58,437 bases of DNA from a virus (taxonomy: Duplodnaviria > Caudoviricetes): positions 1 to 58,437 of IMG/VR virus record IMGVR_UViG_3300037336_000026. One strand, written 5' to 3'. The notes below the pieces were generated by a model. It saw only the letters and a list, made by a program, of their open reading frames with translations. It searched no databases and was not told where the DNA came from. This document shows, piece by piece, positions 1,550-58,437 of this stretch (its first letter is position 1; each line of letters starts with the position of its first letter). Made by a program: the position numbers and the translations under genes.

Positions 1550-1565
1550 AGCCGGTTCCTAATAG
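1550..1565 (+). promoter_or_regulatory. phage RNAP promoter-like motif upstream of terminase
   Basis: AGCCGGTTCCTAATAG, 1 mismatch to consensus AGNCGGTACCTAATAG. Confidence 0.7.
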
Positions 1566-3232: not shown

Positions 3233-3244
3233 GGTATAATTATT

Positions 3245-3400: not shown

Positions 3401-3401
3401 T

Positions 3402-3686: not shown

Positions 3687-3692
3687 ATATAT

Positions 3693-19819: not shown

Positions 19820-20280
19820 TGAAACTAAGTAAGAATTTTAGTTTAGAAGAATTAACAAAATCAGATCTAGCAATTAGATTATGTGTTGATAACACACCTA
19901 ATGCAACAGTAACAGCTAATCTTCAAGAGTTAGTTGATAATATATTACAACCATTGAGAGACAAGTTTGGCCCAGTAATTATCTCAAGCGGGTATCGTAG
20001 TCCAGAAGTTAACTCAAAAGTAGGTGGCAGCAAAACAAGCCATCATTGCTTTGGTTATGCAGCTGACATCGAAATCCCCGGAATGGATAACCAAGAGCTA
20101 GCACTATACATAAGAGATAACTTTAAGTTTACCCAGTTGATACTAGAGTTCTATAGGTCTGGAGTACCCGACAGCGGTTGGGTGCATATAGCTTTTAACA
20201 TACATGATCTAAAAGGTCAAGAGTTAACAGCAGTAAAAGAGTCCGGTAGAACACAATACAAGTCTGGCATCGTAGCCTGA
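19819..20280 (+). CDS. endolysin, peptidase M15A family
   Basis: LSKNFSLEEL, SSGYRS, SHHCFGYAADI, WVHI zinc motifs. Confidence 0.9.
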   Translation: MKLSKNFSLEELTKSDLAIRLCVDNTPNATVTANLQELVDNILQPLRDKFGPVIISSGYRSPEVNSKVGGSKTSHHCFGYAADIEIPGMDNQELALYIRDNFKFTQLILEFYRSGVPDSGWVHIAFNIHDLKGQELTAVKESGRTQYKSGIVA

Positions 20281-20295
20281 GGCGGTACCTAATAG
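20280..20295 (+). promoter_or_regulatory. phage RNAP promoter-like motif upstream of phoH/tail operon
   Basis: AGGCGGTACCTAATAG, exact consensus, intergenic. Confidence 0.8.
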
Positions 20296-20303
20296 GGAAT
20301 ATC

Positions 20304-20987
20304 TTGAAAAGAAACGACAAACAACGCAATGAACGCATGGTAAGAGAAGACAAGTCTTTTCATTTCCAACCTAAAACTCTTAACCAACAAATGCTATTAG
20401 ATGCTATTAGTGAATTTGAAATCACAGTAGCGTTAGGGCCAGCTGGAACTGGTAAAACATTTTGCTCTGCTAGTAAAGTAGCTCAAATGTTTTTAAAAGG
20501 TGGTTATGATTATATTATATTAAGTAGGGCTAATGTACCTACTGGAAGATCATTAGGTGCATTTCCAGGGACTGTTGAAGAAAAACTAGCTCCTTGGTTA
20601 TTACCTATTACTTTTGTATTAGAAAAGAGATTTGGTAAAACTAAATATGATTATTTAGTAAGTAAGAAGGCAATTCAAATGCAACCATTAGAGACTATTA
20701 GAGGTAGATCCTTTGAAAACTCTTTAGTAATCATAGATGAGGCTCAGAACTTAACATTTGATGAAATCAAAGCTATTACTACTCGATTAGGTGAGAATTC
20801 TAAAATGATTTTATCTGGTGATGCGTCTCAATCAGATGTAAGTAATGGTAATGGTATTACTAAGTTTACTAAATTGTGTGAAAAGAATAATATTGAGATT
20901 CCAGTAATTCAATTTACAGTTAATGATGTTGTCCGTTCAGATATCGTTGGTGCCTTAGTTAAAATGTTTGTAAAAGAGAACGTATAA
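20304..20987 (+). CDS. phoH: PhoH-like ATPase
   Basis: GPAGTGKT, RGRSF, IIDEAQN, TRLGENSK, GDASQSD; TTG start. Confidence 0.93.
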   Translation: MKRNDKQRNERMVREDKSFHFQPKTLNQQMLLDAISEFEITVALGPAGTGKTFCSASKVAQMFLKGGYDYIILSRANVPTGRSLGAFPGTVEEKLAPWLLPITFVLEKRFGKTKYDYLVSKKAIQMQPLETIRGRSFENSLVIIDEAQNLTFDEIKAITTRLGENSKMILSGDASQSDVSNGNGITKFTKLCEKNNIEIPVIQFTVNDVVRSDIVGALVKMFVKENV

Positions 20988-21004
20988 ATAAATAAGGAGT
21001 AGTT

Positions 21005-22552: not shown

Positions 22553-22553
22553 T

Positions 22554-26163: not shown

Positions 26164-26682
26164 ATGGTCAGAGATCCTTGGGCATGGACCAAAGAAGATA
26201 AAAATAATTTCGGTAGTGTTGGTGGCCCTATGTCTGCTTCAATCCAACCATCTAACGAACAAGCACCTCCACCAGCAATGTCTACACCTGATCCTGTTGA
26301 TCAACAATTGACAAGTATGGCTCTTGGTAAGGGTATTGAGGTAACTGCTTCTGGTGTTAGTGGTGCATTAGGTTCAGGTACAGCTGCTGCAGAAGGTATG
26401 GCAACTGCTGTTGGTACTGGTGCTGCTTCAGGTGCTGGATCACAGGCTGCCATATTAGCCGCACAGAATGCAGGTATGGGAGCATTAGCTCCACAGGCTG
26501 CTGGTCTGACTGCTCAAGCATTAGGTGCAGGTACAGCCGCTACTACTGCAGCTACTACGGGTGCCGTTGCAACAGGTGCTGGTGCCCTAGGTGCTGGGGG
26601 GACCGCTGCTATGGCAGCACTAGGCCCTGTCGGTTGGACTATTGGTGGTCTTTTGCTTGCTAAAAAGTTTGGACTATTCTAA
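26164..26682 (+). CDS. putative ejection protein, Gly/Ala-rich with hydrophobic C-terminus
   Basis: composition and position. Confidence 0.6.
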   Translation: MVRDPWAWTKEDKNNFGSVGGPMSASIQPSNEQAPPPAMSTPDPVDQQLTSMALGKGIEVTASGVSGALGSGTAAAEGMATAVGTGAASGAGSQAAILAAQNAGMGALAPQAAGLTAQALGAGTAATTAATTGAVATGAGALGAGGTAAMAALGPVGWTIGGLLLAKKFGLF

Positions 26683-26692
26683 GGAGAATCAT

Positions 26693-29098
26693 ATGGATAA
26701 TATTGGACCGTTGTCTACACGACAACAGTTAGACGCTCTTAAGATAGAACAAGAAAGAGCAAAATTACTTAGGCAACAAGCCGAAGCACAAAGATCGGTT
26801 AATAAAATAACTGCAGAAGTACCTAAAGCAATTGAACCTGTTCCACAAGTACCTCAGACTTCTACTCAACCTTTTGATGATTCATTACTTGGTCATATGA
26901 TTAATCAAGAAAGTGGAGGATACCACAGAAACCCTAAGACAGGAGAACTAACAACGCCACCTGTTAAAAAAGGAGAAGTCCCACCTAAATACCCAGCTAA
27001 AGGTATTTTACAATGGAAAGGGGATTCAGCAGCACAACCGGGATATGGTACTACCCCCTTTGATGTTAACACAGCAGATGAGAATACCCAAATCAATGCC
27101 TCTAGACAATACATGACTGGACTTACAAAGGCCTTTGATGGTGATTTAGAAAAAGGATTAGCTGCTTATAATTTTGGCCCAGGAAATCTCAAAAAACATA
27201 TTGCAGCTAACGAAGCAAAGGGTTTAGATTGGAAGGTAGGATTACCAAAAGAAACAGCTAATTATGTCAGTAATATTATGGGTGAGTATTCTTCTGGAAA
27301 TCCTAATGTAGGATCTCAGGTACCTCCTGTTTATCGAGCTTCCATTAATCCAAGAGATACTATGAAAGTGCCGCCAGTAGGCCCGATAGATGAGACTAGT
27401 CTTGTTAGTGTACCTCCACAATCAATGCCTACTGAATTGGAAGTCCGAGCAGCACATCTAGATATCAGAGATAGTAGCAATCTTGTAAAGAGAGCTAAAG
27501 CTCAGATGGTTATAGATAGAGCTAATGGTGTTGAATCATCTCCCGGAATGATTAGGGCTGCTACTTCCAACTTCTCTCCTCAACTACCTAGTACAATTAA
27601 ACCTATGACCGAAGGGGATAACTCTAGTGGTGGTATTGATGCAGCTGATGATCCAGAAGCTCAGGCATTTGCCCCTATCAGTACTAACAATCTCTTAGTA
27701 GTACCTCCATTACAAGATAATGCAGATCAAGTAACACCAGTTACAGTAGAGAGTGGGGTTGTACCACCTCTTGATGAAACAGATTTACCCCCACTGACAT
27801 CAACACAACAAAAGACTATAGATAGCCTAGGTGCTGCTGGTGGCACAGTAAACCCTGCGTCTATAGCTGACACCTTAGTAGGCGTAAGTGGTGACTCTAT
27901 TATAGGTGGCCCTAATTCAGGTAGCGAAGAAGACAAAGCTAAATTACCTGATACATTCTGGAAAGAGCTATCTAAATCATTTAAAGACTTATTTACAGAT
28001 AAAGAGTTTATTAGGTTTGGTATCTTGTTAGCCGGTGGTATGCTTACTGGTGGCTCATTCGGTGGTTCACTTAAGTACGCTGGTTTGTATGCTCTTCAAT
28101 CTGCTGATAAAAGAGAAGCCGTTACAGCTGCTGCTACAGTAACAGCTAAGGCTGCTGCTGCTAAAGACCTAAGTGATAGAGGGAATGCTATTGATAAGAG
28201 TCTCGCATCTGCCTTAGCTAATACAAGTATCCCTGATAATCAGAGGAACTTTGCACTTCAGCAAATGAGAAAGAATGATACTTTACCTTTGGAGCAACGT
28301 GTAGCTGCTAACTTAGCTCTCTTAGAAGGACTCAATTCACTAGCTACTAAAAAAGAGGGTTATAAACCAATACAAAGAGTGGTTGACGGGACAATTACAA
28401 ATCTATATAAAGACCTAGATAACGGTACATTCTCTACAAAAACAGAAGACGCTAAAGGTAATGTAAGCTTTACTGTTGTTCCTAATACACTAAGTGTTGA
28501 TGATTTTACAACCTTAAATAGTGACGTTAAAGGTGCAGTATCATCAATGGTTGGTGCTTTATTAGACCCTGAGCTAAAGAACGCAAACGATATTAAAGAT
28601 AATATTGCTCAACAAACTTTAGATACTACTACTCACATGACAACATATGGTAGTACTATTCAGGCTAGAGATGTAGCTCAGATGGCTAAGGTTGCTATGA
28701 ATACTGTTGGTACTTACAGAGCTGGAATGGACTACGCAGAATGGTCGTCTAAATATGTTGGTGCCTTGTACACTCAAGCTGCTGTTCGTATAGCCCCAAC
28801 TAGAAAAGAATTGTTTATGAATCCTGAAGGGCTCCCCTTATCAGCACCTGCTTATGCCAGAATTAGAACTGAGTTAGCTGGTGATAAGTTAGAACCGGGC
28901 CTTGCTAGACTAATAGGTGAGTACGAAAAATACCGTGACAATGCATCTACTACTAAGGTAGATATTACATTACCAAACAATGGTTCCTTAAAGGTGCCTA
29001 AGGATGTTGCAACATACTTAAATCAAAACAAAGCAGAAAGTCCGTTAACGGCGTATCTTCATTTGCGTAGTCTAGGTAAAGTAGGCAAAGTAAATTAA
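26693..29098 (+). CDS. internal virion protein with lytic transglycosylase (SLT) domain
   Basis: NQESGG, GILQW, LAAYNFGPGN, ETANYV motifs; ATG at 26693 after AAGGAG. Confidence 0.85.
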   Translation: MDNIGPLSTRQQLDALKIEQERAKLLRQQAEAQRSVNKITAEVPKAIEPVPQVPQTSTQPFDDSLLGHMINQESGGYHRNPKTGELTTPPVKKGEVPPKYPAKGILQWKGDSAAQPGYGTTPFDVNTADENTQINASRQYMTGLTKAFDGDLEKGLAAYNFGPGNLKKHIAANEAKGLDWKVGLPKETANYVSNIMGEYSSGNPNVGSQVPPVYRASINPRDTMKVPPVGPIDETSLVSVPPQSMPTELEVRAAHLDIRDSSNLVKRAKAQMVIDRANGVESSPGMIRAATSNFSPQLPSTIKPMTEGDNSSGGIDAADDPEAQAFAPISTNNLLVVPPLQDNADQVTPVTVESGVVPPLDETDLPPLTSTQQKTIDSLGAAGGTVNPASIADTLVGVSGDSIIGGPNSGSEEDKAKLPDTFWKELSKSFKDLFTDKEFIRFGILLAGGMLTGGSFGGSLKYAGLYALQSADKREAVTAAATVTAKAAAAKDLSDRGNAIDKSLASALANTSIPDNQRNFALQQMRKNDTLPLEQRVAANLALLEGLNSLATKKEGYKPIQRVVDGTITNLYKDLDNGTFSTKTEDAKGNVSFTVVPNTLSVDDFTTLNSDVKGAVSSMVGALLDPELKNANDIKDNIAQQTLDTTTHMTTYGSTIQARDVAQMAKVAMNTVGTYRAGMDYAEWSSKYVGALYTQAAVRIAPTRKELFMNPEGLPLSAPAYARIRTELAGDKLEPGLARLIGEYEKYRDNASTTKVDITLPNNGSLKVPKDVATYLNQNKAESPLTAYLHLRSLGKVGKVN

Positions 29099-29112: not shown

Positions 29113-32100
29113 ATGATAGAAGAAGATAAAAAAGATCCTGGCCCACAGGTAAAATTTATTGATGGGAAGCCCGTAGGTTCCTCTTACAGTATAGATGCTG
29201 ACACAACAGTTGTTGATGATCAATCATACCGTATACAAGGCTTTAACGCTTTTGAGACTGCTAAAGATAAAGCAGGAATAATTGTTCCTAACCAATATCA
29301 AGGTGATAGGACACAAGAGTTTGTAAATAGGTTCGCAGAAACGGGTGAGTTTGATCGTCTTAATACGAAAGGTCAAGACCCTGCATTTAAGAATCGTGTA
29401 CTAGCAAGGCAAGTCAATCTTGAAGGAGAAGACTTAGCCTCTGTTATGACCTCTCTTGGCGTAATTGACCCTACTGCTTTCTCAAACCCTGAAGATATTA
29501 ATAACTCAATTGCTAGTGGTAGTATTAGTAGGTTGTTTCCAACAGCAGACAGTACAGATCCATTAAGAGCACTCGCTAAGGAAAAGAAAGACTATGATAA
29601 GGCACAAGGCGTTAGATGGGAAAAGACCTCTAACGTAGCCTCACCAGCAGAGTACAAAGCATTTCAAGATGCTGTTGGCGCTACAGCTGCTGCCACTGCT
29701 GCTACTGAAGTTGAAAGACTCAATGAGGTACTGGCAACAGAAGAAATGAGCGACTCCACAAGAAGTCTCCTCACTACCCAATTAGAAGAGGCAAGAGGAA
29801 GGGTCTTATTTGCTGCATTAACTCCTAGAATTATCGGTGGAGTTAACTATCAACCTAACGATAGAAACATTATGAATAAAGCTACTGGCTTTATTAATCA
29901 ATCTTACGCTGCACTTAACGTTGCAACGACAATGTTCGTTAAGGGTATTGGTGGTGTATTAGAGATGGCTGGTGAAAAAGGTCAGTGGGATTATATAAGC
30001 CAGAAGGGTAAAGAATACCAATTAAAAGCTGAACTGTATGATGCAGACACCCCATCTTACGTTGCTACAGTTTCTGATATAGATACAAGTAATCCATTTT
30101 CTGCAGTAGCAGATACTGGTTTGTTCTTATCTAACAACCTTATCACAATGATTCCGTTGTGGACTTCTGCATTAGCAGCTGGTGGCGTTGCTGCTACCTT
30201 AGGGGCTCCTGCAGTTGTAGCAGCCGGTATATCTGTGTTACCCGGATGGTTAACATATACTGGTGGTATGTATTCAGACCAACCTGAAGGTGAAAAGAAC
30301 CCAGCTCAAGCCTCCTCTTTTGGTTTGTTTGCTTCTGTTCTTGATAGGTTAGGTATTGAAGCTATCTTTGCTAAGGGCGCAAGTAGCCTCCTTACTAAGA
30401 AAGGCTTAGATGAGATGGTAGCGATTGTAGTTGCTAAGAAGGGAGTTACTCCAGAAGTAGCTAAAGAACAAATTGCAACTATAACTAAGAAAGAACTTAT
30501 CGAGACTGCCAAGTTTAGTAGTGCATTTGCAAAGTCGCAAGTAGCTACAATGGCATATGCAACTAAAGCTCTTGCACGTATATCAGCTGCTGGTATTACT
30601 GAGGGTGTTACTGAGACTGCTCAGAGTGCCTTAGAACTTATTGCAGCTACTGGACAATGGAACTTAGATGCTAGGTACCAAAAGGATTTCAACAAGCAAT
30701 TGGTTGATTCCTTTATTGCTGGTGGAGCTATCGGTGGTGTTATTACAGGAGCTGGTGAGGCAAAGACCTTAGCACAACTACATTCAGCTTATGATTATCA
30801 CAGGACTAATACAAGAGATCTAGATGATAACCAAAAAGCACAATTATCTCTTGAAGAAGAATATAACTCTGGATCATTGCCCGGCATTGGTACTGAGTTT
30901 AATACCTTTAACGTAGCTAAGGGTATTCAGTTACAGTCTCATGATTTTATATCAGGTAATCCTAGGAACGCTACTGATGCAGTTAAGATGACTAACAAAG
31001 AAGGCTTTATTAACATACTTACAGATGGTTTTAGACTATTAAGAGGTCATGCTAATCAGATGACTAAAAAGCTTTATAATGCTGACGGTAAATTTCTGAG
31101 AAATAGAGCTGTTATTAAATCGCTTATGTCAGGTATGGGTATAGTTCCGGGTCAACCTTACAGTGGTTTTAAAAGATCACTACTAGGTGAGTGGGCTGCA
31201 AAGCATACCAGCTCTGCAAATATTTCTGCGGAAATGAATATGAGTGAAGTAGAATCTGGTAACGTTATCCTAGATGCTTATAGAAGATTTTGGTCTAAGG
31301 GGTTAGATACACCCGTAGAACATCCTAACTTTGAAGCATTGAACAGGTATCATAGTGAGTTGGGTAACATGCAAAGAACAGCTAGGGGTATGGCTAATGA
31401 GTCTGGCGTTTCTAGTTCTTTGATTGATAATCTTGATTCCCTCTTTGTTCCTGAGATAGATAAACATACCTTCAATAAAAATAAAGATACCATTATTGAT
31501 AAGTTAATGGCACAAGGTATGCCAAGGAGTGAAGCTAATAAAACAGTAGAGAATATTTTCTCTAGTGATAAAGGAAAAATGAGAGATGCCTCTGAAGCAA
31601 TTGCTAATGCAGGTTTATTTAGAGATCCTGAATTAGATCATATCTTTGAGAAGAACTTCTTTAGATCATTAGAAGGTATTAAGGAAAGATTAGCGGCTAA
31701 CATAGCTATCAATAGCTACTACGGTAAAGATGCAGAGATTCTTTATAAGTTAGCGGACATGGCAGATCAGAATGGTGAGTTCTCTAGTCCAGAAGAAAAG
31801 CAAACATACCTCAGTGAAATTAAAGATTACTTTGATATGATTGAAGGTAAGTATAACACATTAGATAATTACCCAGTAATTAAAAATGTATATGCATGGA
31901 CAGGAACCTTGACAATGTTAGCTATGCTAGGTAAGGCAGGATTATCCTCGTTACCTGAGGTTGCATTGTCATTGCTAGGCACAAGAGGAGAGAAGGTAGG
32001 AGACCAATTAGGCTTATGGGCTAAGAATATGCTTAGCGAAATTGGCGATGATGCATTTACTCGTAGTAACTCATTTGTTACTAGTGCTCTACGCATATCT

Positions 32101-33339
32101 AAATTAGGTAACGTAGCTCTTAAGACTCAAGATATTAAGCTTGCAGAACAGATTGCTGAGATAGAGGCCGCGCTAAAAGTAGCTCAGGCTGTAAAAGGTA
32201 ATGACAAAGAGCTTGATGCTATTGGTGTTAAACTGGATAGTTTGTATGAAGAATCTATTGGAAGAACTTTATTTGAAGATCTTGGATTTGCAGAAACTGG
32301 GTTTAACACTCAGTCTAGATTCGAGTATGCAGACAACAGTATGCGTAATGTTATGGGCTTATTCGCAAAGATAACCTTACTTAAGCAAACTACTGAGTCT
32401 ACTCGTATGGCTGCTATATCTATGGCATCTGATACGGTGGCATCTTATGTGGAAGCACTTAGAGGTGTACCAGTCGAAATGTTTAGGACTGGTAAGGGGC
32501 TAACTAAGTTCCAATACCAGGCATTAAAAGAGTTACAAGCATACGGTATGAATGTACCTGATGTAATGTTTTATATCGAAAATACAGAAAGCGGTGAGCT
32601 TAATTCATTGTCTTCAAGATATGAAATGTTTGTACTTAAGGGTAAAGAGGATGTAACTGATGTACCTTTTAATAGTTTCATGAGAAATATTAATACGGCT
32701 GTATCAAACATGGTTGATTCAAACGTTCCTAACCCACAACCACATAACATTCCTAAGTATTATCATGACCCTAGGTTTAGGATTATAACCGTTATGACAA
32801 GGTACCTTGCAGCACTGCAAACCTCAGTCATACCTAAGTTATATAATGATTATATTAAAGATGGTAATGTAGGTATGCGTTATCAAGCGTTCTCAGTTAT
32901 GGTTGGTGCAATGGCTCTTGCTGGATTGGCTAATGGTTTAAAAGATCAATTATCTTACGGAGAAGACAGCCCATATATCAATGGTATAATGAAGAATGCT
33001 CAAAGAACCCTATATGGTGCAGGTTTATTAGGTCGTGGTGAGGTTATTGTAGATGCAATGGCTCCACTATACAATCGTAAAGGCGTTAGCCTAAGTGATG
33101 CAATGAGTCCCGGTAATGATAGAAGTACTATCGGTGGCTGGGTTTATGACACAGCTAAAAGCAATATGGCACCAGTCGCATGGGCTGATAGGTTTGTTAG
33201 AGCAGGTAGTGCTATATCTGATGGTGACTACCCTACAGCTGGAAGACAACTTGCAAGGGCAATGCCTTTAATCGGGTCTGTACCTAGAACATACGATGAA
33301 CTAGAAGAATTATTTGTAAATTCACTTAAGGAAAAATAA
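29113..33339 (+). CDS. large internal virion (ejection) protein with N-terminal SNase-like domain
   Basis: 1408 aa, hydrophobic segments, EGVTETAQ motif; N-terminal IDADT..YRIQGFNAFE. Confidence 0.75.
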   Translation: MIEEDKKDPGPQVKFIDGKPVGSSYSIDADTTVVDDQSYRIQGFNAFETAKDKAGIIVPNQYQGDRTQEFVNRFAETGEFDRLNTKGQDPAFKNRVLARQVNLEGEDLASVMTSLGVIDPTAFSNPEDINNSIASGSISRLFPTADSTDPLRALAKEKKDYDKAQGVRWEKTSNVASPAEYKAFQDAVGATAAATAATEVERLNEVLATEEMSDSTRSLLTTQLEEARGRVLFAALTPRIIGGVNYQPNDRNIMNKATGFINQSYAALNVATTMFVKGIGGVLEMAGEKGQWDYISQKGKEYQLKAELYDADTPSYVATVSDIDTSNPFSAVADTGLFLSNNLITMIPLWTSALAAGGVAATLGAPAVVAAGISVLPGWLTYTGGMYSDQPEGEKNPAQASSFGLFASVLDRLGIEAIFAKGASSLLTKKGLDEMVAIVVAKKGVTPEVAKEQIATITKKELIETAKFSSAFAKSQVATMAYATKALARISAAGITEGVTETAQSALELIAATGQWNLDARYQKDFNKQLVDSFIAGGAIGGVITGAGEAKTLAQLHSAYDYHRTNTRDLDDNQKAQLSLEEEYNSGSLPGIGTEFNTFNVAKGIQLQSHDFISGNPRNATDAVKMTNKEGFINILTDGFRLLRGHANQMTKKLYNADGKFLRNRAVIKSLMSGMGIVPGQPYSGFKRSLLGEWAAKHTSSANISAEMNMSEVESGNVILDAYRRFWSKGLDTPVEHPNFEALNRYHSELGNMQRTARGMANESGVSSSLIDNLDSLFVPEIDKHTFNKNKDTIIDKLMAQGMPRSEANKTVENIFSSDKGKMRDASEAIANAGLFRDPELDHIFEKNFFRSLEGIKERLAANIAINSYYGKDAEILYKLADMADQNGEFSSPEEKQTYLSEIKDYFDMIEGKYNTLDNYPVIKNVYAWTGTLTMLAMLGKAGLSSLPEVALSLLGTRGEKVGDQLGLWAKNMLSEIGDDAFTRSNSFVTSALRISKLGNVALKTQDIKLAEQIAEIEAALKVAQAVKGNDKELDAIGVKLDSLYEESIGRTLFEDLGFAETGFNTQSRFEYADNSMRNVMGLFAKITLLKQTTESTRMAAISMASDTVASYVEALRGVPVEMFRTGKGLTKFQYQALKELQAYGMNVPDVMFYIENTESGELNSLSSRYEMFVLKGKEDVTDVPFNSFMRNINTAVSNMVDSNVPNPQPHNIPKYYHDPRFRIITVMTRYLAALQTSVIPKLYNDYIKDGNVGMRYQAFSVMVGAMALAGLANGLKDQLSYGEDSPYINGIMKNAQRTLYGAGLLGRGEVIVDAMAPLYNRKGVSLSDAMSPGNDRSTIGGWVYDTAKSNMAPVAWADRFVRAGSAISDGDYPTAGRQLARAMPLIGSVPRTYDELEELFVNSLKEK

Positions 33340-33340
33340 A

Positions 33341-36300
33341 ATGGCTTTATTTGGTAATATACGAAACAGGACGGCACCTGACGCTCGTAACTTAAATATC
33401 CCTCAACCAAGAACATCTCAAGGAGAGATGGACGCACGTTACGGGGATGTTCCTCTCCCAGCAGTTTCTTCAGTAGACGAAGCTGCAAGAAGCATAATGG
33501 AATATGGAGGTGTTCCTCCACAAGCGTTTGGCTTACCACCTGTACCCGCACAAGCTGTTGGTACTCCCCTAGATCCAGATCCGCTGGCTAGGCGTGACCG
33601 TGAAATACCTAATCCAGCAACTAATGACTTATCATTGCTTGATCAAGAGCAAATGCAGAATCAAAGTGTACCTGTAAATCCTGAAGATTATTCAAGGCAG
33701 TTCTTAGATGAACAAGCTAAAGAAAAGGATTTCCAGCAAGGCTTTGAGGCTATGCAATCAGTTGTTGATCCTGCTACTGGCCAAAGAATGCCCGGTGACT
33801 TTACAAAAGCAGCTGAGTTAATCTTAGGTGAAGGTAATGAGAAAGCAAAGTATCTATCTCCCGGAGAAGCTGAAAAGTATGCTGCCACGGAAACACAGAT
33901 TAAGAACGCTGCTGACCGTGTATCTTCACCACTAGCTTTAATCTCTGAAAGAGCTAGACAAAATCTCTTATCATCTAGTAGTATGGTATATGATTCGTCT
34001 AACCCTGATTCACGACAAGCTAAGGGTTACACCTTAATGCTAGCAGAGGGCTTCGAAGATTCTGAGATGGAGACAGTAGCTGATATGGCAGGTATTGCGT
34101 CTTACTCTGCTTTGTCTCAGATCCCTAGGGCAAAGGCAGATGCAGAAGAAGATGTAGCTGTAAACCCAAATACAGGAGTTATTAATTACGATAACGTAAT
34201 TGCTAGCGGTACTCACTTCATGAAAAATATGGCCAAGACTGTTGGCTTACCTGAACCAAGTCCCGGTTTCTTTGAGAGCATAATGGCTACTCATTTTCAA
34301 GCTGAAGTACAAAAAGGTAGCTATGCTCTTAACCGATCTGCGGATGGTAAGATAGAGTATCTCCCTACTGATGCTCAGAAAATTATAGCTAGGAAAGTTG
34401 GTACTGTTGCTAGGATAGCTACAGCTAGGCTTGGTAGGAATGTTTCATCTAGAACACCCCAAATTGTTGGATCAGCCCTTGGTGAGAAACAAACATTCAC
34501 TAAGAGGTCTCTTACAAGCAACTCTGTATTAGGTAGAGACCTAGATACCTCTGCTGCGGAGACTGTAAAGGACATGATGGGTAGTGTAAGCTATCGCTTC
34601 TTACCTTCTCATGTAGCTCTGCAAGAAAAGTTTATGACAGCTATGTTGTCACCTGAGTTCCTAATTAACTCTCCGGATGAAGGTGTATACTCTACTCACT
34701 ACATGGCAGAGCATTATGGTCTTTCCCAGAAAGACTTTAATAAGATTAAGAACAATCAATTACCTCCTAGAGATGAAGCTAAAAGAGTAGGTTGGTCTCC
34801 AATACCGGCTGCTGTTAAGATAATGAACAACATTATCAAGCAGAAGGGTATGGTCTTAGAAGCAATTAAGGGTGCTGAAGGTTTAAGGTTCGCTGAGATC
34901 ATGCACTCAATCATGAACCATCGTTACTTTATTAATAGTTACGATCTTGATTACATGGGTTCCAAGGATATGATTCGTGATATCCTTAACTTCGGTGAAA
35001 GAGATATCGTGTATGGTAAATCGCTTTTCCCTAATGATTTGAATTCTTCTTTAGAGAATGACAGACTTAAATCAGAGGGTCTAAAGATCTTCAAGATAGA
35101 AGATGGTGTAGCAAGAGGGAAAGCCCTTGAGAGTCTAACTCCAGATAAGCTTGGTGCCTTAGGTACAATGATTGATGCTGTACTGAACTATCATACTGTT
35201 GTTAAGCCTTTACCTGATGTACTGAAGATGCCTGATAGAGATCTTATTGGCCTTTACACACCAGAGCTAGCTAACGCGTTAGCAGACTTAGGTGGTCAGT
35301 ATAACGCCTATATAAACGATCCAGAAGGTGATGCTAATAATAAACACAATAACATCTTAACTTACTTAGCAGCAATACCTAAAGGAGAATTCCTTGCTAA
35401 TGCTGCTTTGTGGGATGATATGTTCCAATTGAAGAATGATGCAGCTAACCCTAAGAGCAATAAGCTTGGTAGGTCTATTACTCATACAACAATTAGTGAT
35501 GGTACTCAGAGTGGTTTGTTTATTCAGGCCTTCCAACACGGTAACAGTGAACATGCAGATCGTCTTGGTAGAGCTAAGTATGCCGATGAAGAGCGTGCTC
35601 CAAGAGACCTTCGTGATGCTACTATGGCATCTATGATTGAAGAAGTAGATAGGATTAACCGTAAGAGTGGTACTATTGAGGACTCTAATACTGCAGATGC
35701 ATTTAGTGCTTTCTTTGCAGAGCTACCTGATGTATATCGAGGTGATTACCATGCGATGGCGAATGAGTTCTTTAAAGCGCCATTGATGCAAGTGTCTTAC
35801 TCCAAAGATGCAGGTATGTTTCAAGGTTTCTTGGAAGACACATTATCAAGGACTAACATAGAACCCTTAGTATCTAAGTACTTGTTACCTCACTTTGGTT
35901 CATTATCTGATGCTGCTGCTAGCCTTAATATTTCTTTAGAGAATGTATTAAGAGAAGCTATATCTACTTCAGTTAGGAAGCTACAGGATATTGGTTATGG
36001 TATGGCAATACTTGATAAACCACTGGTTTATAAGAGTATAACAGGTGATGATGTCCTTATCAGCCCTGCTGGTTTAACCACAATACCAAAGACTGTAGAC
36101 TATAACTCATTTACTACTGGTAAGCATGGCTTTAAATTCTTAGCTAGTGGTGTTGAGACAATTGATTTTATGGTTGACGATGGTAGTGGTATGCTGACTA
36201 GTAAGTCTATACCCCGTAAGATGATGGGGCTATTGCCTGGACATGCCAAGCCTGTTCAATACTACTGGGATAACCAAGCAAAAGTATATAGACCTTATAA

Positions 36301-37459
36301 AAGCTTTGCAGGTAGTTCTTTGTCCAGAGAAGCAGCGGTAATGCCTACACAGGCTATCGATGCAGCTTGGATTACATTAACTATGTTAGAAGTAAATAAG
36401 GGAAGATCTAAACCAAGACCAGTTTCTTGGGTACACGATTCAATTATATCTACTGGTGGTCAGGGCCTTATCTATCGTAACGCTTATAACAATATAACAA
36501 TACCTAGGTCAATTAAGACTGTTGCTAAAACTAATGGTGATATTTATAATGCCTACAAAGAAGCTAAAGCACAGGAGCTAAGGCTTATTAAAATTAAAGG
36601 TGTGGTTGGTATAGGTTCTGATGGTCAGTACGAATCTATGGGTGGTTTCTTTGATAGCATGTTCTATCAGTTCGAACCTATGAGTGAGTACAAAGCAATC
36701 TTCCTAAAGAGAAGAAATAGCAGTGGTGCTATGCGTACTGAGCTAGATTGGAATAAGAAAGTACTACAGGTTAACAAAATCCTTGATGAAGCAATCAATA
36801 ATGGATATGTACCTCCTAACCTTGTCCCTGAGTCTGAGCGTAAGAGCATGGCAGTTAATGCAACTGAGTATGAAGCCTTACTAGGATTGTTTGAGACAGT
36901 TAGAGGCATTAGCCCTAGAGTACTACAAGCATGGGCTGATAATTCAGAAGCTAAGGGTATTGAGGCCGGAAAGTTCCTTATTAAGAGAGCTAAATACGGT
37001 GGTATTATACAGATGGCACCTAGTGGTGGTGCAAGGCCAATGTTATCTTCTATGATTACTGAATCACTTGCTTCAGCTAAGAAGCCAGTAACACCCTTTA
37101 AGTTTGCAGCACCAGTAGCAGCTGAAGTGGTTGAAGAAGCACCTGTAAAAGCTAATAGTAGAGCCGGTTTACTTGAGCAAGCTCAACGTGATACTAAGTT
37201 TACTGATGAAGCTACAGAGGTTGATGAAGTACCTGCTGTAACTAGTGGTGATGATATCCCTACAAATGATTCTATATTAACAGACAAGACAAAACCTATA
37301 AGCTTAGTTGACCTTGTTAATCATATAAAATCTAAGAGCCTAATCCCTACTGCTGCAAATACTAACTCATATTTACTTGATCTTAGATTAAAAGGATATG
37401 ATGTTAGCAGTATTACTTATGATGATGTAGACAACTTCTTCAGTAATATACCTATCTAA
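33341..37459 (+). CDS. divergent single-subunit (T7/N4-family) RNA polymerase, putative virion RNAP
   Basis: motifs in correct order: HRYF..DYMGSKDMIR, ISDGTQSG (A), FKAPLMQVSYS (B), PTQAIDAA, WVHDS (C). Confidence 0.8.
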   Translation: MALFGNIRNRTAPDARNLNIPQPRTSQGEMDARYGDVPLPAVSSVDEAARSIMEYGGVPPQAFGLPPVPAQAVGTPLDPDPLARRDREIPNPATNDLSLLDQEQMQNQSVPVNPEDYSRQFLDEQAKEKDFQQGFEAMQSVVDPATGQRMPGDFTKAAELILGEGNEKAKYLSPGEAEKYAATETQIKNAADRVSSPLALISERARQNLLSSSSMVYDSSNPDSRQAKGYTLMLAEGFEDSEMETVADMAGIASYSALSQIPRAKADAEEDVAVNPNTGVINYDNVIASGTHFMKNMAKTVGLPEPSPGFFESIMATHFQAEVQKGSYALNRSADGKIEYLPTDAQKIIARKVGTVARIATARLGRNVSSRTPQIVGSALGEKQTFTKRSLTSNSVLGRDLDTSAAETVKDMMGSVSYRFLPSHVALQEKFMTAMLSPEFLINSPDEGVYSTHYMAEHYGLSQKDFNKIKNNQLPPRDEAKRVGWSPIPAAVKIMNNIIKQKGMVLEAIKGAEGLRFAEIMHSIMNHRYFINSYDLDYMGSKDMIRDILNFGERDIVYGKSLFPNDLNSSLENDRLKSEGLKIFKIEDGVARGKALESLTPDKLGALGTMIDAVLNYHTVVKPLPDVLKMPDRDLIGLYTPELANALADLGGQYNAYINDPEGDANNKHNNILTYLAAIPKGEFLANAALWDDMFQLKNDAANPKSNKLGRSITHTTISDGTQSGLFIQAFQHGNSEHADRLGRAKYADEERAPRDLRDATMASMIEEVDRINRKSGTIEDSNTADAFSAFFAELPDVYRGDYHAMANEFFKAPLMQVSYSKDAGMFQGFLEDTLSRTNIEPLVSKYLLPHFGSLSDAAASLNISLENVLREAISTSVRKLQDIGYGMAILDKPLVYKSITGDDVLISPAGLTTIPKTVDYNSFTTGKHGFKFLASGVETIDFMVDDGSGMLTSKSIPRKMMGLLPGHAKPVQYYWDNQAKVYRPYKSFAGSSLSREAAVMPTQAIDAAWITLTMLEVNKGRSKPRPVSWVHDSIISTGGQGLIYRNAYNNITIPRSIKTVAKTNGDIYNAYKEAKAQELRLIKIKGVVGIGSDGQYESMGGFFDSMFYQFEPMSEYKAIFLKRRNSSGAMRTELDWNKKVLQVNKILDEAINNGYVPPNLVPESERKSMAVNATEYEALLGLFETVRGISPRVLQAWADNSEAKGIEAGKFLIKRAKYGGIIQMAPSGGARPMLSSMITESLASAKKPVTPFKFAAPVAAEVVEEAPVKANSRAGLLEQAQRDTKFTDEATEVDEVPAVTSGDDIPTNDSILTDKTKPISLVDLVNHIKSKSLIPTAANTNSYLLDLRLKGYDVSSITYDDVDNFFSNIPI

Positions 37460-37469
37460 AGCAATTTTT

Positions 37470-37508
37470 AAGCCCCTACTCGTAATTGAGTGGGGGCTTT
37501 ATTTTTTT
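37470..37508 (+). terminator. intrinsic terminator at the convergence of the two blocks
   Basis: AAGCCCCTACTC-GTAATT-GAGTGGGGGCTT followed by a T-run. Confidence 0.85.
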
Positions 37509-37955: not shown

Positions 37956-38032
37956 TGGTGCGCCCAGAGAGATTCGAACTCCCGACCCACGCCTTAGAAG
38001 AGCGTTGCTCTATCCATCTGAGCTATAGGCGC
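37956..38032 (-). tRNA. tRNA-Arg (anticodon UCU)
   Basis: GCGCCTATAGCTCAGATGGATAGAGCAACGCTCTTCTAAGGCGTGGGTCGGGAGTTCGAATCTCTCTGGGCGCACCA; cloverleaf, TTCGAA loop, encoded CCA. Confidence 0.96.
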
Positions 38033-38111: not shown

Positions 38112-38127
38112 CTATTAGGTACCGACT
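38112..38127 (-). promoter_or_regulatory. phage RNAP promoter-like motif upstream of ncRNA/tRNA
   Basis: AGTCGGTACCTAATAG overlapping the nrdB stop. Confidence 0.8.
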
Positions 38128-41120: not shown

Positions 41121-41136
41121 GTATTAGGTACCGACT
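41121..41136 (-). promoter_or_regulatory. phage RNAP promoter-like motif upstream of nrdA
   Basis: AGTCGGTACCTAATAC, intergenic. Confidence 0.75.
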
Positions 41137-41138
41137 GA

Positions 41139-43337
41139 TTAGCAAAAGAAATACTTTGATTCCATTACATCGATTAAATCTAAACTTCCTAGCTCAGGTT
41201 GTGGTAGAGTGAATGACACTTTGTTATTCATTAGTGTACCTTGTATAACATCAAAGAAGTTTGATACATCATACTGAGCAATGAAAGTCATCTTAGTTAC
41301 TTCCTGTAGAAAGTCCACTCCGGAGGCATGTGTACTGAAGCTATCATGTACAGCTGCAAAGCTTGCATCAAATACATTAATAGTGTTAGCCATATGAGCA
41401 GCATCATAAGAGTGGACAACATTGGGGCTAATACCTGAAGCAAATGATCTACGGCAAGGTACTTTTTCACCTGTATCTTTGTTAAGTACATCCACTCGGA
41501 TAACGTGCATGACACGCCCGTCTTTATTACCGACAATACCTTTGATAGTGCCTCTTTGTTTACGTTCATGTTGTAAGAATGCCTTATATATTACAGGAAA
41601 GCCACTAGGGGTATGCCAATCTAATACGTTACGACCTGAGTTAATCTCATGCTCAACTATCTTTTGCAGATACTTAGTGGTCTTTAACGGGCCATTACAT
41701 ACTGAGTTAATAGCCTTGATAAGATTACCTGACAGCATATTACAATCATCTTCTGTGATGTTGTATTTAACTGTGAAGCCTTCTACGTGGCAGTCATCAT
41801 ACATATTCTTAGAGATACGTTTCTTACCAGCCGAGTATGCACGAGTCATTGAACCTCGTTTAGCGATACCCTTACGAATGTCTTTCATAGGCATACCCTT
41901 ACTGGTAAACCAATCAGGCATTGTAATGATTAGTTCCTTAGCTACAGCTACATAGAAATCTTTTTGGATTTTAGTAGGTACTAAAGAAACTAATTCACCT
42001 GCTTGCTTGTCTTTAGACATAGCTGCTAGGTGCTGCCAACCATTATTACTACCATCAATAGGTATAGGTAATCTAGAGTAATAGTCACCCTTAGAGCTCA
42101 AACATTTAGTTATATCGATACATGCTGCCAAGAAAGCATAAGGCTTTTCTGAGTCATTTATAACCTTTAGATCATTAGCACAACTAATTATGAACTTTAA
42201 ATTCTCCTTAGCCCATGCCTCTCGATCTTCTAAGGTCATCTTATCTACACTAATAGTTTCTAATCCCTCTTCCTTGAGGTAATCTACATAATCAGTTGAT
42301 AACCAATCGATATCTTCTAGCTGATCGATATTGTATGATGCATTGTAGCTATTAGCAGCATGAATAAGCATCCATTTAAAACCTTCTGGAGTAACTTTCT
42401 CCTCGTTATTAAACAAGAACAAACTACGAGACAAGTCACTACCTTGGAACTCCAAGAATGACTCAGCATAATAGATACGACCTCGGTAGTCACATGAAAC
42501 TTCTTGGTAGAAGGTTCTGTCACCAACCATCTCAGCCTTCTTAACTACCTGCATATACTCAAAGTACTTAGAGATCATACGCTGTAGCTTAGGATCTTTC
42601 TTTCCCATGAAAGTAGTACCATCAAGGTGATTAAGCTGCTTAGGTAAATGTAGGTTCTCATGATGTACGTTGTACTCATATAGTACTCCGTCTTCATCTG
42701 TTAACTCTATAATTTCCTTAGGTTTATTATTTTGCATAGCCTTAAGCACATCTAAGTTTAACTTCCAACCTTGCTGTCTTAAAGTTTCAAGAGCCTTAAC
42801 AAAAGGTTTGTCTAAGTACTCATGGAATAGCTTACTGTTAGACCATCCTTTAATGAATGGATCTTTAGTAATACCACTGTACAAACCAGCAATAGGTAAC
42901 GGAGCTTCAAACACAGTACCAATAAGTACTGGCTTAATGTCGTCAGCCTGATTAACAATACGCACCATGTACGGTGCCTTCTGTCCTTCATACTCGCGGA
43001 AGATATCTATCAACCCATCTTGAAGGAATGTTTCTAAGAACAAGTCACCAAGACTTAAAGTTGTTTTGATATTAGTATCATCAACGCCGATAGAACGGGC
43101 GATCCGCTTTCCAATGAGATCACTTGAAAAAGTGAGCTTAACTGAGGCGGTAAACTTGGAGGTTTTATTACGGATACAGTAACGTAGGAGTGTGTCCCAT
43201 GATTCATCTATAAGTCTTTCTAATTCATATTCCCATGTGGGATGGTGTGCTAATAGTCGAGCACCCTCATTATAAATCTTATCTGAGTTTACTACGACTT
43301 TAGATACGCGTTCGGATAAGTATTTTAGTGGATTCAT
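41139..43337 (-). CDS. T7-like single-subunit RNA polymerase
   Basis: DYRGRIY, PIPIDGSNNGWQH, RKGIAKRGSMTRAY, PNVVHSYDAAH, VHDSF, C-terminal YFFC. Confidence 0.95.
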   Translation of the reverse strand: MNPLKYLSERVSKVVVNSDKIYNEGARLLAHHPTWEYELERLIDESWDTLLRYCIRNKTSKFTASVKLTFSSDLIGKRIARSIGVDDTNIKTTLSLGDLFLETFLQDGLIDIFREYEGQKAPYMVRIVNQADDIKPVLIGTVFEAPLPIAGLYSGITKDPFIKGWSNSKLFHEYLDKPFVKALETLRQQGWKLNLDVLKAMQNNKPKEIIELTDEDGVLYEYNVHHENLHLPKQLNHLDGTTFMGKKDPKLQRMISKYFEYMQVVKKAEMVGDRTFYQEVSCDYRGRIYYAESFLEFQGSDLSRSLFLFNNEEKVTPEGFKWMLIHAANSYNASYNIDQLEDIDWLSTDYVDYLKEEGLETISVDKMTLEDREAWAKENLKFIISCANDLKVINDSEKPYAFLAACIDITKCLSSKGDYYSRLPIPIDGSNNGWQHLAAMSKDKQAGELVSLVPTKIQKDFYVAVAKELIITMPDWFTSKGMPMKDIRKGIAKRGSMTRAYSAGKKRISKNMYDDCHVEGFTVKYNITEDDCNMLSGNLIKAINSVCNGPLKTTKYLQKIVEHEINSGRNVLDWHTPSGFPVIYKAFLQHERKQRGTIKGIVGNKDGRVMHVIRVDVLNKDTGEKVPCRRSFASGISPNVVHSYDAAHMANTINVFDASFAAVHDSFSTHASGVDFLQEVTKMTFIAQYDVSNFFDVIQGTLMNNKVSFTLPQPELGSLDLIDVMESKYFFC

Positions 43338-49648: not shown

Positions 49649-49664
49649 CTATTAGGTACCGGCT
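49649..49664 (-). promoter_or_regulatory. phage RNAP promoter-like motif upstream of the replication operon
   Basis: AGCCGGTACCTAATAG, intergenic. Confidence 0.8.
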
Positions 49665-55656: not shown

Positions 55657-55672
55657 AGATGGTACCTAATAG
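55657..55672 (+). promoter_or_regulatory. phage RNAP promoter-like motif for the lone + strand gene
   Basis: AGATGGTACCTAATAG, 1 mismatch. Confidence 0.75.
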
Positions 55673-55700: not shown

Positions 55701-56102
55701 ATGTCAGGTGGAAAATCAAGAAACGTTAATTCATTAGCTAACCTGAAGCTCATAACTTCAGAGACAGCTAGGATTAACCAAAAGAAAAGCACTCAGTCAC
55801 GACTAGCAAATATTCAAGCAAGAGAAGCTTTCAAATTCTCTGCTAAGAACTTTGCACAGGTCATGAAGGATTTACCAGAAATGTCCTCGTTGGATGTTAT
55901 CAAAATGGCTATGCTGCAAGCCCTTCAAGAGGATAACATTGAAGATGCAGCTCGTTATGCTAGTATGCTAGCAGAATACCAAGCACCTAAGCTACAGCGC
56001 ATAGAACAGAACACTACTACTAGGATATCTGATATGTCTGATGAAGACTTACAGAAGATTATTGATCAAGAAGGTCTTAAGAAAAACCTACCCGAAGAAT
56101 AA
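55701..56102 (+). CDS. putative terminase small subunit
   Basis: NSLANLK N-terminus, LAEYQAPKLQRIE, SDMSDEDL C-terminus; AAGGA RBS; own promoter and terminator. Confidence 0.55.
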   Translation: MSGGKSRNVNSLANLKLITSETARINQKKSTQSRLANIQAREAFKFSAKNFAQVMKDLPEMSSLDVIKMAMLQALQEDNIEDAARYASMLAEYQAPKLQRIEQNTTTRISDMSDEDLQKIIDQEGLKKNLPEE

Positions 56103-56166: not shown

Positions 56167-56182
56167 CTATTAGGTACCGTCT
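56167..56182 (-). promoter_or_regulatory. phage RNAP promoter-like motif
   Basis: AGACGGTACCTAATAG followed by GAAGTTTCCAGTAAG. Confidence 0.8.
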
Positions 56183-56713: not shown

Positions 56714-56853
56714 CTCTCTAGATAATACTCTCTAGATAATACTCTCAGGTTATATTCTCAGGTTATATTCTCAGGTTATATTCTCAGGTTATAGTTCCCT
56801 GTTAATAGTTCCTTGTTAATAACTATCTATTAATATTATCTATTAATAACTTC
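56714..56853. repeat. AT-rich 13-14 bp drifting tandem repeat (about 10 units)
   Basis: CTAGATAATACTCT x2, CAGGTTATATTCT x3, then CAGGTTATAGTTCC, CTGTTAATAGTTCC, TTGTTAATAACTAT, CTATTAATA... Confidence 0.85.
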
Positions 56854-56867: not shown

Positions 56868-56883
56868 CTATTAGGTACCGGCT
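56868..56883 (-). promoter_or_regulatory. phage RNAP promoter-like motif
   Basis: AGCCGGTACCTAATAG followed by GAAGTTTCCGGTAAG. Confidence 0.8.
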
Positions 56884-58248: not shown

Positions 58249-58404
58249 TTATATGAGCTTAAAGCCGTTGAGATAGTTAACAAAGCTGATGCGCTTACGG
58301 CGGAGAATAGCGGTTAGTAGAAACCCCCATACGTCCGCGTCGTCTTTGTACGGGAACACAAGGTACCAAGTACCGTATACACGTTTTAGTTCTGTTTTCA
58401 TCAT
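58249..58404 (-). CDS. early small protein (51 aa), duplicated in part at 1-140
   Basis: MMKTELKRVYGTWYLVFP...; TAAGGAGAC RBS. Confidence 0.6.
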   Translation of the reverse strand: MMKTELKRVYGTWYLVFPYKDDADVWGFLLTAILRRKRISFVNYLNGFKLI

Positions 58405-58437
58405 AGTCTCCTTAGTAGATGATTACTTCGTATTGCT
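58265..58437. repeat. terminal direct repeat / circular assembly overlap (copy 2)
   Basis: matches 1-173 with 2 mismatches. Confidence 0.95.

Follow-up and report, generated by a model that had tools for sequence, protein, structure and literature searches.

The stretch of DNA analyzed here, the 58,437-nucleotide IMG/VR virus record IMGVR_UViG_3300037336_000026 (hereafter the window), raises the question of whether a phage that encodes a canonical T7-like RNA polymerase (RNAP) also carries a second, barely recognizable single-subunit RNAP in its virion. The gene concerned (33341..37459, + strand) encodes a 1372-aa protein, for which an earlier note on this DNA had proposed such a role. We find that the protein almost certainly belongs to the single-subunit RNAPs and that it is probably packaged and injected. 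The window holds an entire phage genome, assembled as a circle of 58,264 bp, with nt 1–173 duplicated at 58265–58437. True terminal repeats, the other reading of these 173-nt identical ends, were rejected because an open reading frame (ORF) spans the join, and for this reason the contig is read as a circularised genome.

The motif strings quoted in the earlier note were all found in the translated ORF, each where it had placed them: HRYFINSYDLDYMGSKDMIRDIL at residues 527–549, FKAPLMQVSYS at residues 811–821, and PTQAIDAA at residues 1002–1009, with D720 held by TISDGTQSG and H1032/D1033 by WVHDS. T/DxxGR is used here in its customary sense, for both the name and the role of that motif. The gene, its predicted regions and its motif residues are listed below (conservation refers to an alignment of 54 family members; pLDDT is the predicted local distance difference test of the AlphaFold2 (AF2) model).

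33341..37459, + strand: gene of the 1372-aa divergent single-subunit RNAP, candidate compact virion RNAP (ORF, translation, family, AF2, Foldseek)
33341..33631, + strand: N-terminal low-complexity proline-rich region, residues 1–97 (composition, 15.5% Pro; residues 90–97 have pLDDT below 50)
33632..37096, + strand: confidently folded predicted RNAP core, residues ~98–1252 (AF2 pLDDT; Foldseek alignments of 1000–1300 columns to T7, mitochondrial, and N4 RNAPs)
34922..34924, + strand: R528, T/DxxGR-like motif, family consensus NxRFF (invariant; aligned to T7 R425 by hhalign)
35498..35500, + strand: D720, predicted motif A catalytic Asp, consensus DGNQNG (invariant; aligned to T7 D537 in DGSCSG)
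35774..35800, + strand: motif B, K812 to Y820, consensus KxPLMQxxYG (aligned to T7 K631...Y639)
36350..36361, + strand: Q1004...D1007, consensus IQxxDG, counterpart of T7 H784-D787 (D1007 invariant, Q1004 at least 90%; hhalign register)
36434..36439, + strand: H1032-D1033, motif C, VHDS (D1033 invariant, H1032 at least 90%; aligned to T7 H811-D812)
37097..37456, + strand: poorly conserved C-terminal tail, residues 1253–1372 (pLDDT below 50 from model residue 1164; consensus fades past GIxQM)

Relatives were collected by an exhaustive phmmer search with residues 430–1260 against 1.8 billion cluster representatives. The search returned 83 metagenomic cluster representatives at E <= 0.001, 49 of them at E <= 1e-30; almost all are 1150–1470 aa long or fragments of such proteins, and no ordinary RNAPs are found among them. 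When the 54 full-length members, which share 14–57% identity with the 1372-aa protein, were aligned, the only invariant columns were M1, R528, R546, D720, Q723, R758, V1000, D1007, D1033, and G1155. Y820, K822, Q1004, and H1032 are conserved in at least 90% of these proteins; K812 is invariant among the 21 closest members and Y820 in 36 members. The most conserved residues of the family are the polymerase motifs.

To place these motifs in the T7 register, the family was compared by hhalign with a profile of 13 T7-like RNAPs (T7, the 732-aa canonical enzyme of the phage and 7 of its relatives, CRP-7, DSS3_VP1, LUZ100, and HTVC048P). A single collinear alignment of 402 columns was obtained, in which residues 495–1042 of the 1372-aa protein match T7 391–821 (score 34.1, E 0.011). 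In this alignment R528 is paired with T7 R425, D720 with D537, K812 with K631, Y820 with Y639, D1007 with D787, and H1032/D1033 with H811/D812. Motif B is spaced as in T7, its Tyr lying eight residues past its Lys. The score of the real alignment compares with a maximum of 20.3 in 25 column shuffles of the RNAP alignment and with 15.5 for the reversed profile.

The AF2 model of residues 90–1280, built from 64 sequences, reached a mean pLDDT of 90.1 and a predicted TM-score of 0.90, with an active-site core above pLDDT 90. Foldseek comparison of this model with the PDB gave 73 matches at E <= 0.001; among the matches listed, all are single-subunit RNAPs (E 2.6e-13 to 1.4e-9, probability 1.00), including the yeast mitochondrial enzyme (8c5u, 2.6e-13), T7 RNAP (8dh4, 1.6e-11), human POLRMT, and the RNAP domain of N4 gp50 (9pnq, 5.4e-10; 2po4, 6.6e-10). 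Among the matches listed for BFVD, phage RNAPs came first (E 4.7e-14) and segments of N4-like virion RNAPs (vRNAPs) stood lower. The AlphaFold and Foldseek check that the earlier note had proposed thus predicts an RNAP fold. Transitive links were also found at the sequence level. A PHROG scan of 36 family members matched PHROG 414 (RNAP) in 2 and PHROG 2206 (N4-type virion RNAP) in 1. One member, P0075 (1166 aa), matches PHROG 2206 at E 2e-16 over profile positions 1314–1500 of 3406, which correspond to the RNAP part, and was itself retrieved with the 1372-aa protein, at E 2.1e-6, from the 1.8 billion proteins searched; a locus search with P0075 found no genome locus. Another, P0081, matches PHROG 414 at E 6.9e-6. 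PF00940 was matched weakly by 2 of the 36 members at E <= 0.1 (best E 0.0011), and in the ESM Atlas, by language-model features, a 1216-aa cluster with 88% of its members carrying PF00940 was retrieved (score 0.94).

Several results weigh against this identification. The 1372-aa protein has no Pfam match even at E <= 1, PF00940 included, no PHROG match, and no PDB sequence match by phmmer. The family hidden Markov model, run against PDB sequences, found no RNAP and gave one irrelevant 97-aa match (E 0.31); the family gave nothing in hhalign comparisons with one T7 RNAP sequence, one N4 mini-vRNAP sequence, or 11 close N4 relatives (E 0.36–0.47); and none of the 36 members matched at E <= 0.1 the Pfam families that cover N4 gp50 (PF21769, PF21894, PF21624, PF21867). 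The hhalign probability of the T7 alignment is only 3.9%, and the Foldseek TM-scores are moderate (0.33–0.52). The divergence is equally plain in other searches: tblastn with the 1372-aa protein against 50,697 phage records (E <= 1e-3) returned nothing, BLASTP against the 732-aa RNAP of the same phage gave no match, a word-indexed search retrieved the protein itself and one 64%-identical relative only, and phmmer runs with N4 gp50, T7 RNAP, CRP-7 gp30, or the 732-aa RNAP as query retrieved none of the family proteins at E <= 10. Only proteins at least 71% identical came back when relatives of N4 gp50 were sought, so that no diverse N4 profile was obtained. The lack of a direct Pfam, PHROG, or PDB sequence match and the low hhalign probability would be expected if the resemblance were spurious, or if the protein were a polymerase of another class, for instance a DNA polymerase of family A or a primase-polymerase. 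We give this view almost no credence, because the Foldseek matches listed for the PDB and BFVD are all T7-, mitochondrial-, or N4-type RNAPs with no DNA polymerases among them, because RNAP-specific motifs are conserved (the T/DxxGR Arg, Y820 at the Y639 position, IQxxDG at the HSQDG position), and because two family members match RNAP PHROGs. In addition, the genome already encodes a family A DNA polymerase and a primase-helicase. Altogether, predicted fold, motif register, and transitive sequence links uphold what the earlier note had claimed, and the 1372-aa protein is almost certainly an extremely divergent single-subunit (T7/mitochondrial/N4-type) DNA-dependent RNAP.

The earlier note had further stated that both catalytic Asp residues and the Lys and Tyr of motif B are intact. 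This holds true: D720 and D1033 are invariant in the 54 sequences, and K812 and Y820 lie in the T7 register. The computations on sequence and model thus show an RNAP predicted to be catalytically competent, and the retention of the catalytic residues down to 14% identity points to selection on catalysis. A protein with an RNAP-derived fold might alternatively be an ejection protein that has ceased to make functional transcripts and contributes structurally to the ejectosome, or serves purely as the motor or anchor by which DNA is drawn in. Such a role would suit its position among ejection proteins (see below) and its very fast sequence divergence. We nevertheless think it distinctly improbable, since the two catalytic Asp residues and the T/DxxGR Arg are unchanged throughout that range of identity, the motif B Tyr and the motif C His persist in no less than 90% of the proteins (K812 being invariant only in the 21 closest), and the active-site core is modelled at pLDDT above 90.

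We then considered where in the infection cycle a predicted RNAP of this kind might act. On the + strand, the virion block runs in the order terminase (likely true ATG at 1602), portal, scaffold, capsid, tail and fibre proteins, followed by proteins of 232, 172, 818, 1408, and 1372 aa. A minus-strand T7-like replication module converges on it, with ribonucleotide reductase, the 732-aa RNAP, primase-helicase, exonuclease, DNA polymerase, and many small genes. The 1372-aa gene is the last of the + strand virion block, as the earlier note had it, a placement that follows from gene order and a terminator-like hairpin; its ATG lies 2 nt past the stop codon of the 1408-aa gene. The separate canonical RNAP that the note had reported was found as well. 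The neighbouring features are:

26642..29098, + strand: 818-aa internal virion protein with lytic transglycosylase domain (Pfam SLT E 6.3e-6; PHROGs internal virion protein / lytic tail protein)
29113..33339, + strand: 1408-aa cysteine-free all-helical protein, candidate equivalent of the N-terminal domain with which N4 vRNAP binds membranes
37470..37499, + strand: terminator-like hairpin, 13-bp stem then T run, 11 nt past the stop codon of the 1372-aa gene; ends the + strand virion operon
41139..43337, - strand: canonical 732-aa T7-like RNAP, the second polymerase (PF00940 E 3.4e-54; PHROG 414 E 2.5e-95)

The genes of the 1408- and 1372-aa proteins are thus preceded by that of the SLT-domain 818-aa internal virion protein and by two small proteins. 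Schitovirus ejection operons encode proteins of ~154, 567, and 3476 aa according to the available text of PMC11445570, and the size order found here (172, 818, then 1408 plus 1372 aa) recalls that arrangement.

Cysteine content sets the 1372-aa protein apart from the cytoplasmic enzymes. It contains no cysteine, 45 of its 54 relatives contain none either, and 53 of the 54 contain at most two. Cysteine is also absent from 19 of 20 members of the 1408-aa family, from the 4 N4 gp50-like proteins checked, and from gp33, gp34, and gp35 of phage CRP-7. In contrast, the 732-aa RNAP has 10 cysteines, the DNA polymerase 12, and the primase 10, the 13 T7-like RNAPs have 7–14, and the CRP-7 RNAP gp30 has 14. 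The available part of PMC11445570 describes suppressed cysteine as a conserved trait of the ejection operon in Schitoviridae and relates it to periplasmic passage. Judged from its position, its avoidance of cysteine, and its kinship, the 1372-aa polymerase is probably packed in the virion and injected. Two considerations count against reading too much into composition: the other virion proteins of this phage are low in cysteine too (0–0.9%), and low cysteine is a mark of virion or ejected proteins in general.

The upstream neighbour provides a further link to N4. The 1408-aa protein matches PHROG 2206 at E 3.4e-4, its residues 381–553 aligning to the N-terminal profile positions 270–418, and 4 of the 20 members of its family match the N-terminal part of this N4-vRNAP PHROG (best E 1.1e-7). 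It also carries the only membrane-type hydrophobic segment (residues 353–377), just ahead of the PHROG 2206-matching region; the 1372-aa chain has none, its highest 19-residue hydropathy being 1.16. In N4 vRNAP, as far as the available text of PMC13434306 describes it, the N-terminal domain has predicted membrane helices at 224–278 and binds nanodiscs, and residues 907–1006 form the linker between this domain and the RNAP domain. The proline-rich 97-aa N terminus of the 1372-aa protein occupies the place of that 100-aa linker of gp50. Other comparisons gave less: hhalign of the 1408-aa family against 11 close N4 relatives reached E 0.2 only, the AF2 model of residues 209–1408 was all-helical but of low confidence (pLDDT 59.1), and a complex prediction of residues 540–1408 with residues 1–130 of the polymerase scored 0.00, which is uninformative either way on binding. 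We infer that the 1408-aa protein and the 1372-aa polymerase would correspond to the N-terminal and RNAP domains of N4 vRNAP, split into two genes. The proposal of the earlier note that adjacent proteins supply the roles fused in N4 thereby gains some support for the 1408-aa protein, from the N-terminal PHROG 2206 matches and the hydrophobic segment. As a separate observation, the first ~100 residues of this protein (29113–29500) show a staphylococcal-nuclease-like signature (consensus DPDT...YRLxGFNAPE), in which D28, D30, T31, R40, N45, and E48 are invariant in 20 relatives; Pfam SNase was reached by 1 of the 20 (E 0.0019).

The gene pair is conserved in related phages. Scanning viral contigs identified 48 loci with a homolog of the 1372-aa protein, 3 of which belong to the phage of the window. 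A homolog of the canonical RNAP is present in 37 of the 48, on the opposite strand and starting ~3–8 kb downstream, and each of the 11 others breaks off less than 3.0 kb past the polymerase gene. All 39 loci that reach upstream of the polymerase gene have the 1408-aa homolog immediately before it; 6 of the 45 non-identical loci begin inside the polymerase gene. Identity in related loci is 26–40% for the 1372-aa and 1408-aa proteins, compared with 55–76% for the canonical RNAP. The only related cultured phage found, and the only match of the genome among the 50,697 phage records, is the unclassified Roseobacter phage CRP-7 (MK613349). Its gp33 (1235 aa) aligns to the 1372-aa protein around motif C (E 5e-9) and has the motif A, B, and C residues, gp34 aligns to the 1408-aa protein (E 3e-20), and gp30 is 32% identical to the 732-aa RNAP. 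The search for syntenic genomes that the earlier note had called for was thus productive, the polymerase pair recurring in those 37 contigs and in CRP-7. In the CRP-7 record gp33, gp34, and gp35 are annotated "hypothetical protein", and the available text of the CRP-7 paper names ORF30 alone as RNAP (PMC6918029). The same text reports this phage type as abundant in marine viromes. Among public data, 21 DNA runs labelled salt lake metagenome hold 78–100% of the sampled words of the polymerase gene, so the lineage is not only marine; run X1 may come from the very sample that yielded the window. Metatranscriptome libraries X22 and X23 (one study) and X24 (another) contain contigs mostly 85–95% alike over the 1408-aa and polymerase genes, one of which (3775 nt) spans the junction between the two; these matches are contigs, and hence silent on transcription, starts, or strand.

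These data bear on another alternative, in which the 1372-aa protein is a real RNAP that is not packaged. It would then work in the cytoplasm as a second enzyme, produced late and active within the same infection cycle, for instance on a subset of late genes or in priming, with host RNAP reading the early genes as in phiKMV-like phages, where the RNAP gene likewise lies at the end of the replication module. The predicted RNAP fold and the motifs agree with this view, and two ordinary T7-like RNAPs do occur together in Alteromonas phage R8W (annotated gp05 and gp33). We regard it as unlikely, because the protein lacks cysteine where the cytoplasmic enzymes of the phage have 10–12 and T7-like RNAPs 7–14, because in 39 of 39 loci its gene closes the virion operon, translationally abutting those of ejection-type proteins free of cysteine, because family members and the upstream neighbour both link to the N4 virion RNAP profile, and because, at 27–34% identity, it evolves as fast as the internal virion proteins, unlike the canonical RNAP with its 55–76% in those loci.

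To see which genes each polymerase might serve, the genome was searched for promoters. A 16–21-nt motif, tAGnCGGTACCTAATAG(g)aA, read in gene direction, has 10 matches with <=3 mismatches, against 1.6 +/- 1.3 expected, and 8 of the 10 are sense-oriented ahead of genes:

56868..56883, - strand: T7-like promoter candidate, first such site in the minus-strand module
56167..56182, - strand: T7-like promoter candidate, motif match
55657..55672, + strand: T7-like promoter candidate, 29 nt ahead of + strand ORF 55701..56102
49649..49664, - strand: T7-like promoter candidate, motif match
41121..41136, - strand: T7-like promoter candidate between RNAP stop and nrdA start, position conserved in distant relatives
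38112..38127, - strand: T7-like promoter candidate, 80 nt ahead of tRNA-Arg
20280..20295, + strand: T7-like promoter candidate inside the virion module, ahead of phoH
1550..1565, + strand: T7-like promoter candidate, 36 nt ahead of terminase ATG 1602, heading the virion module that ends with the 1372-aa gene

Copies of the 11-nt core of the motif are present in 14 distant loci; in every case they read in the direction of the replication module, and in several loci they lie a short way past the RNAP gene. Its end resembles what we take to be the TATAG-type start region of T7-class promoters, and we infer from these sequence patterns that the tAGnCGGTACCTAATAG motif probably belongs to the 732-aa RNAP. 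Three of the sites have neighbours of their own interest. The ORF at 55701–56102 (+, 133 aa) is embedded in the minus-strand early region with its own sense promoter candidate; the tRNA-Arg (anticodon TCT, 37956–38032, - strand) stands in the convergence zone 80 nt downstream of candidate 38112–38127, and the same tRNA is reported for CRP-7 in the available text of PMC6918029; and the 200-nt intergenic gap between candidate 56868 and the next minus-strand gene holds, at 56734–56804, ~5 tandem 13-bp units of a AGGTTATATTCTC-like repeat, which may be iterons or operators.

The minus-strand genes from ~1229 across the join to ~56.9 kb have no T7-like promoter motif ahead of them; the presumed injected enzyme, or else host RNAP, may transcribe them. 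Here again some results count against a polymerase that works from the virion: none of 29 perfect hairpins (stem >=7) recur as a family of N4-style hairpin promoters, a k-mer search found no second repeated promoter motif, and early transcription may be done by host RNAP. The failure to find vRNAP-type promoters fits a non-packaged enzyme, and the failure to find identifiable promoters equally fits a non-transcribing ejection protein. A sigma-70-type scan of nt 1–1500 gave 3 sites against 2.2 +/- 2.0 in shuffles, that is, no enrichment. The 370-bp divergent non-coding region between the first minus-strand genes and the terminase (1230–1601) is likely the site of the earliest promoters. Its minus-gene strand is strongly G/T-rich. 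Within the region TTAAAACTCTATA occurs in duplicate, along with several words of the GTACCCC type and, at 1263–1250, a small terminator-like hairpin. At the start of the minus-strand early genes lies an ORF for a very hydrophobic peptide of ~57 aa (1229–1059, - strand).

Taking a packaged and injected polymerase as the more probable reading, the following course of infection can be proposed. The 1372-aa polymerase would be a late product, the final one of the virion operon, and would be packed in the capsid with the cysteine-free ejection proteins, namely the 172-aa protein, the 818-aa lytic transglycosylase, and the 1408-aa helical membrane-type protein. Injected ahead of or together with the DNA, it would transcribe the first genes, which on this proposal are the minus-strand genes from ~1229 across the join to ~56.9 kb, and this would lead to expression of the 732-aa T7-like RNAP; that enzyme would in turn read the eight tAGnCGGTACCTAATAG sites in the replication and virion modules. 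The 1408-aa protein and the polymerase would then represent the N-terminal and RNAP domains of N4 vRNAP as adjacent genes, with the large C-terminal domain absent, a natural "mini-vRNAP". Going further, this phage group could run its whole transcription without host RNAP, with two single-subunit enzymes: an injected one of roughly 1300 aa for the first genes and, for all others, the T7-like one, with promoters at the head of the replication and virion modules alike. N4 vRNAP could have arisen by fusion of genes that are separate here, one for a membrane-binding ejection protein and one for a stand-alone polymerase, or have been split here; we put this forward as a speculation that we ourselves hold doubtful. 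If it were true, no natural virion RNAP would be smaller than this enzyme, which would also reveal how a polymerase could turn into an ejection protein.

Packaging alone would already imply that injecting one's own T7-type polymerase is no peculiarity of schitoviruses and occurs, with a cysteine-free enzyme of 1200–1400 aa encoded at the same operon position, in an unrelated, environmentally widespread podophage group. The enzyme would be a natural minimal vRNAP without the 1400-aa autoinhibitory domain or a fused membrane anchor, and as such an aid to studying how a folded polymerase passes through a 35-angstrom tail channel. It would also offer a new, very divergent single-subunit RNAP for the study of promoter recognition, and functions could be assigned to CRP-7 gp33 and gp34, now annotated hypothetical.

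Elsewhere in the genome, the ribonucleotide reductase large subunit (39102–41090, - strand) carries a C-terminal thioredoxin-type domain (PHROG 22 to residues 559–648, E 3.3e-15). The tail and fibre genes contain in-frame tandem repeats (16104–17321, 23181–23753, 11182–11900), with a 51-nt period x19 in a 920-aa protein, a 96-nt period x5 in a 684-aa protein, and Ala/Ser-rich 21-nt periods in a 1197-aa protein. G+C is 55% at 16–18 kb, compared with ~40% elsewhere in the genome.

How the 1372-aa protein relates to known systems can now be considered. A literature search that included shorter or split vRNAPs and took in the available text of the CRP-7 paper found no description of such an enzyme. 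Nor did that search find the arrangement described for a classified phage family, a possibility that the earlier note had raised. The note had called the combination of polymerases one that it did not recognise, and this stands insofar as no published description was found; it does not stand as a claim to an unrelated system, since a virion RNAP plus a T7-like second RNAP follows N4-like logic and is a variant of it.

With the T7 and mitochondrial RNAPs (PF00940) the 1372-aa protein shares the predicted fold (E 2.6e-13 to 1e-10) and, with T7 RNAP, the order and register of the motifs (T/DxxGR Arg, A Asp, B Lys/Tyr, H/Q-xx-D, C His-Asp). It differs from them in having no PF00940 match and ~11% identity in structural alignments. 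Compared with T7 RNAP it has ~490 extra residues, in the proline-rich N terminus, a beta-rich module between motifs B and C (model residues ~806–897), and the C-terminal tail; it is free of cysteine, and it is encoded in the virion block, not among early or replication genes.

Other phages are known to bring polymerases in their particles. The virion RNAPs of crAss-like phi14:2 (gp66), phiKZ, and AR9 presumably do the same proposed job, a host-independent start of transcription from the particle. They have a two-barrel multisubunit-type fold, not the T7-type right-hand one, and are far larger or made of several subunits. Alteromonas phage R8W (vB_AmeP_R8W, Autographiviridae) is likewise a short-tailed phage with two single-subunit RNAP genes, so that the statement in the earlier note that T7-like phages have one RNAP is not strictly correct; its annotated T7-like RNAPs are gp05, which is early (1608–3734), and gp33, at the end of the replication module (20915–23305), and unlike the 1372-aa protein both are ordinary and lie outside the virion block. 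Alteromonas phage R22Y has, according to the available text of PMC11705849, a 2083-aa vRNAP and another RNAP. It resembles the phage studied here in having two single-subunit RNAP genes in one short-tailed phage and illustrates that vRNAP size varies, but it is related to the schitoviruses, and its vRNAP, with as many as 2083 aa, can still be recognised by similarity. CRP-7 is the closest in plan, from the portal to three large cysteine-free proteins (gp35, gp34, gp33), a convergent replication module ending in RNAP gp30, and tRNA-Arg(TCT); identity to it is only 26% in the best-aligned segments.

The most instructive comparison is with N4 gp50 and its mini-vRNAP (2PO4, 9PNQ). Like them, the 1372-aa protein has a predicted single-subunit RNAP fold (Foldseek E 5e-10 to 1e-9), with a core of ~1155 aa compared with 1095 aa in N4; it has no cysteine, its gene is the last in an ejection-type operon beside virion genes, and the phage also encodes a T7-like second RNAP. 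Unlike them, it has 1372 aa as against ~3500 (the listed gp50 relatives being 3438–3746 aa, bar one 2480-aa entry), it consists of the RNAP core with short tails only and no C-terminal autoinhibitory domain, and the membrane-binding N-terminal part appears as the separate 1408-aa protein. Neither hairpin promoters nor a match to the gp50 Pfam families was found, the genome is 58 kb as against ~70–75 kb (70,153 bp in the N4 record), and the second RNAP is one chain where N4 has the gp15/gp16 heterodimer. This second RNAP seems to serve the virion genes too, whereas N4 uses host RNAP late (PMC13434306, available text). The same text calls vRNAP unique to Schitoviridae. The 1372-aa protein is not a member of the N4 vRNAP family as that family is defined (~3500 aa, three domains, schitovirus genomes), but it is probably related to N4 vRNAP and would work in a similar way; we read it as a compact version of the N4-type virion RNAP, split between two genes and occurring outside Schitoviridae.

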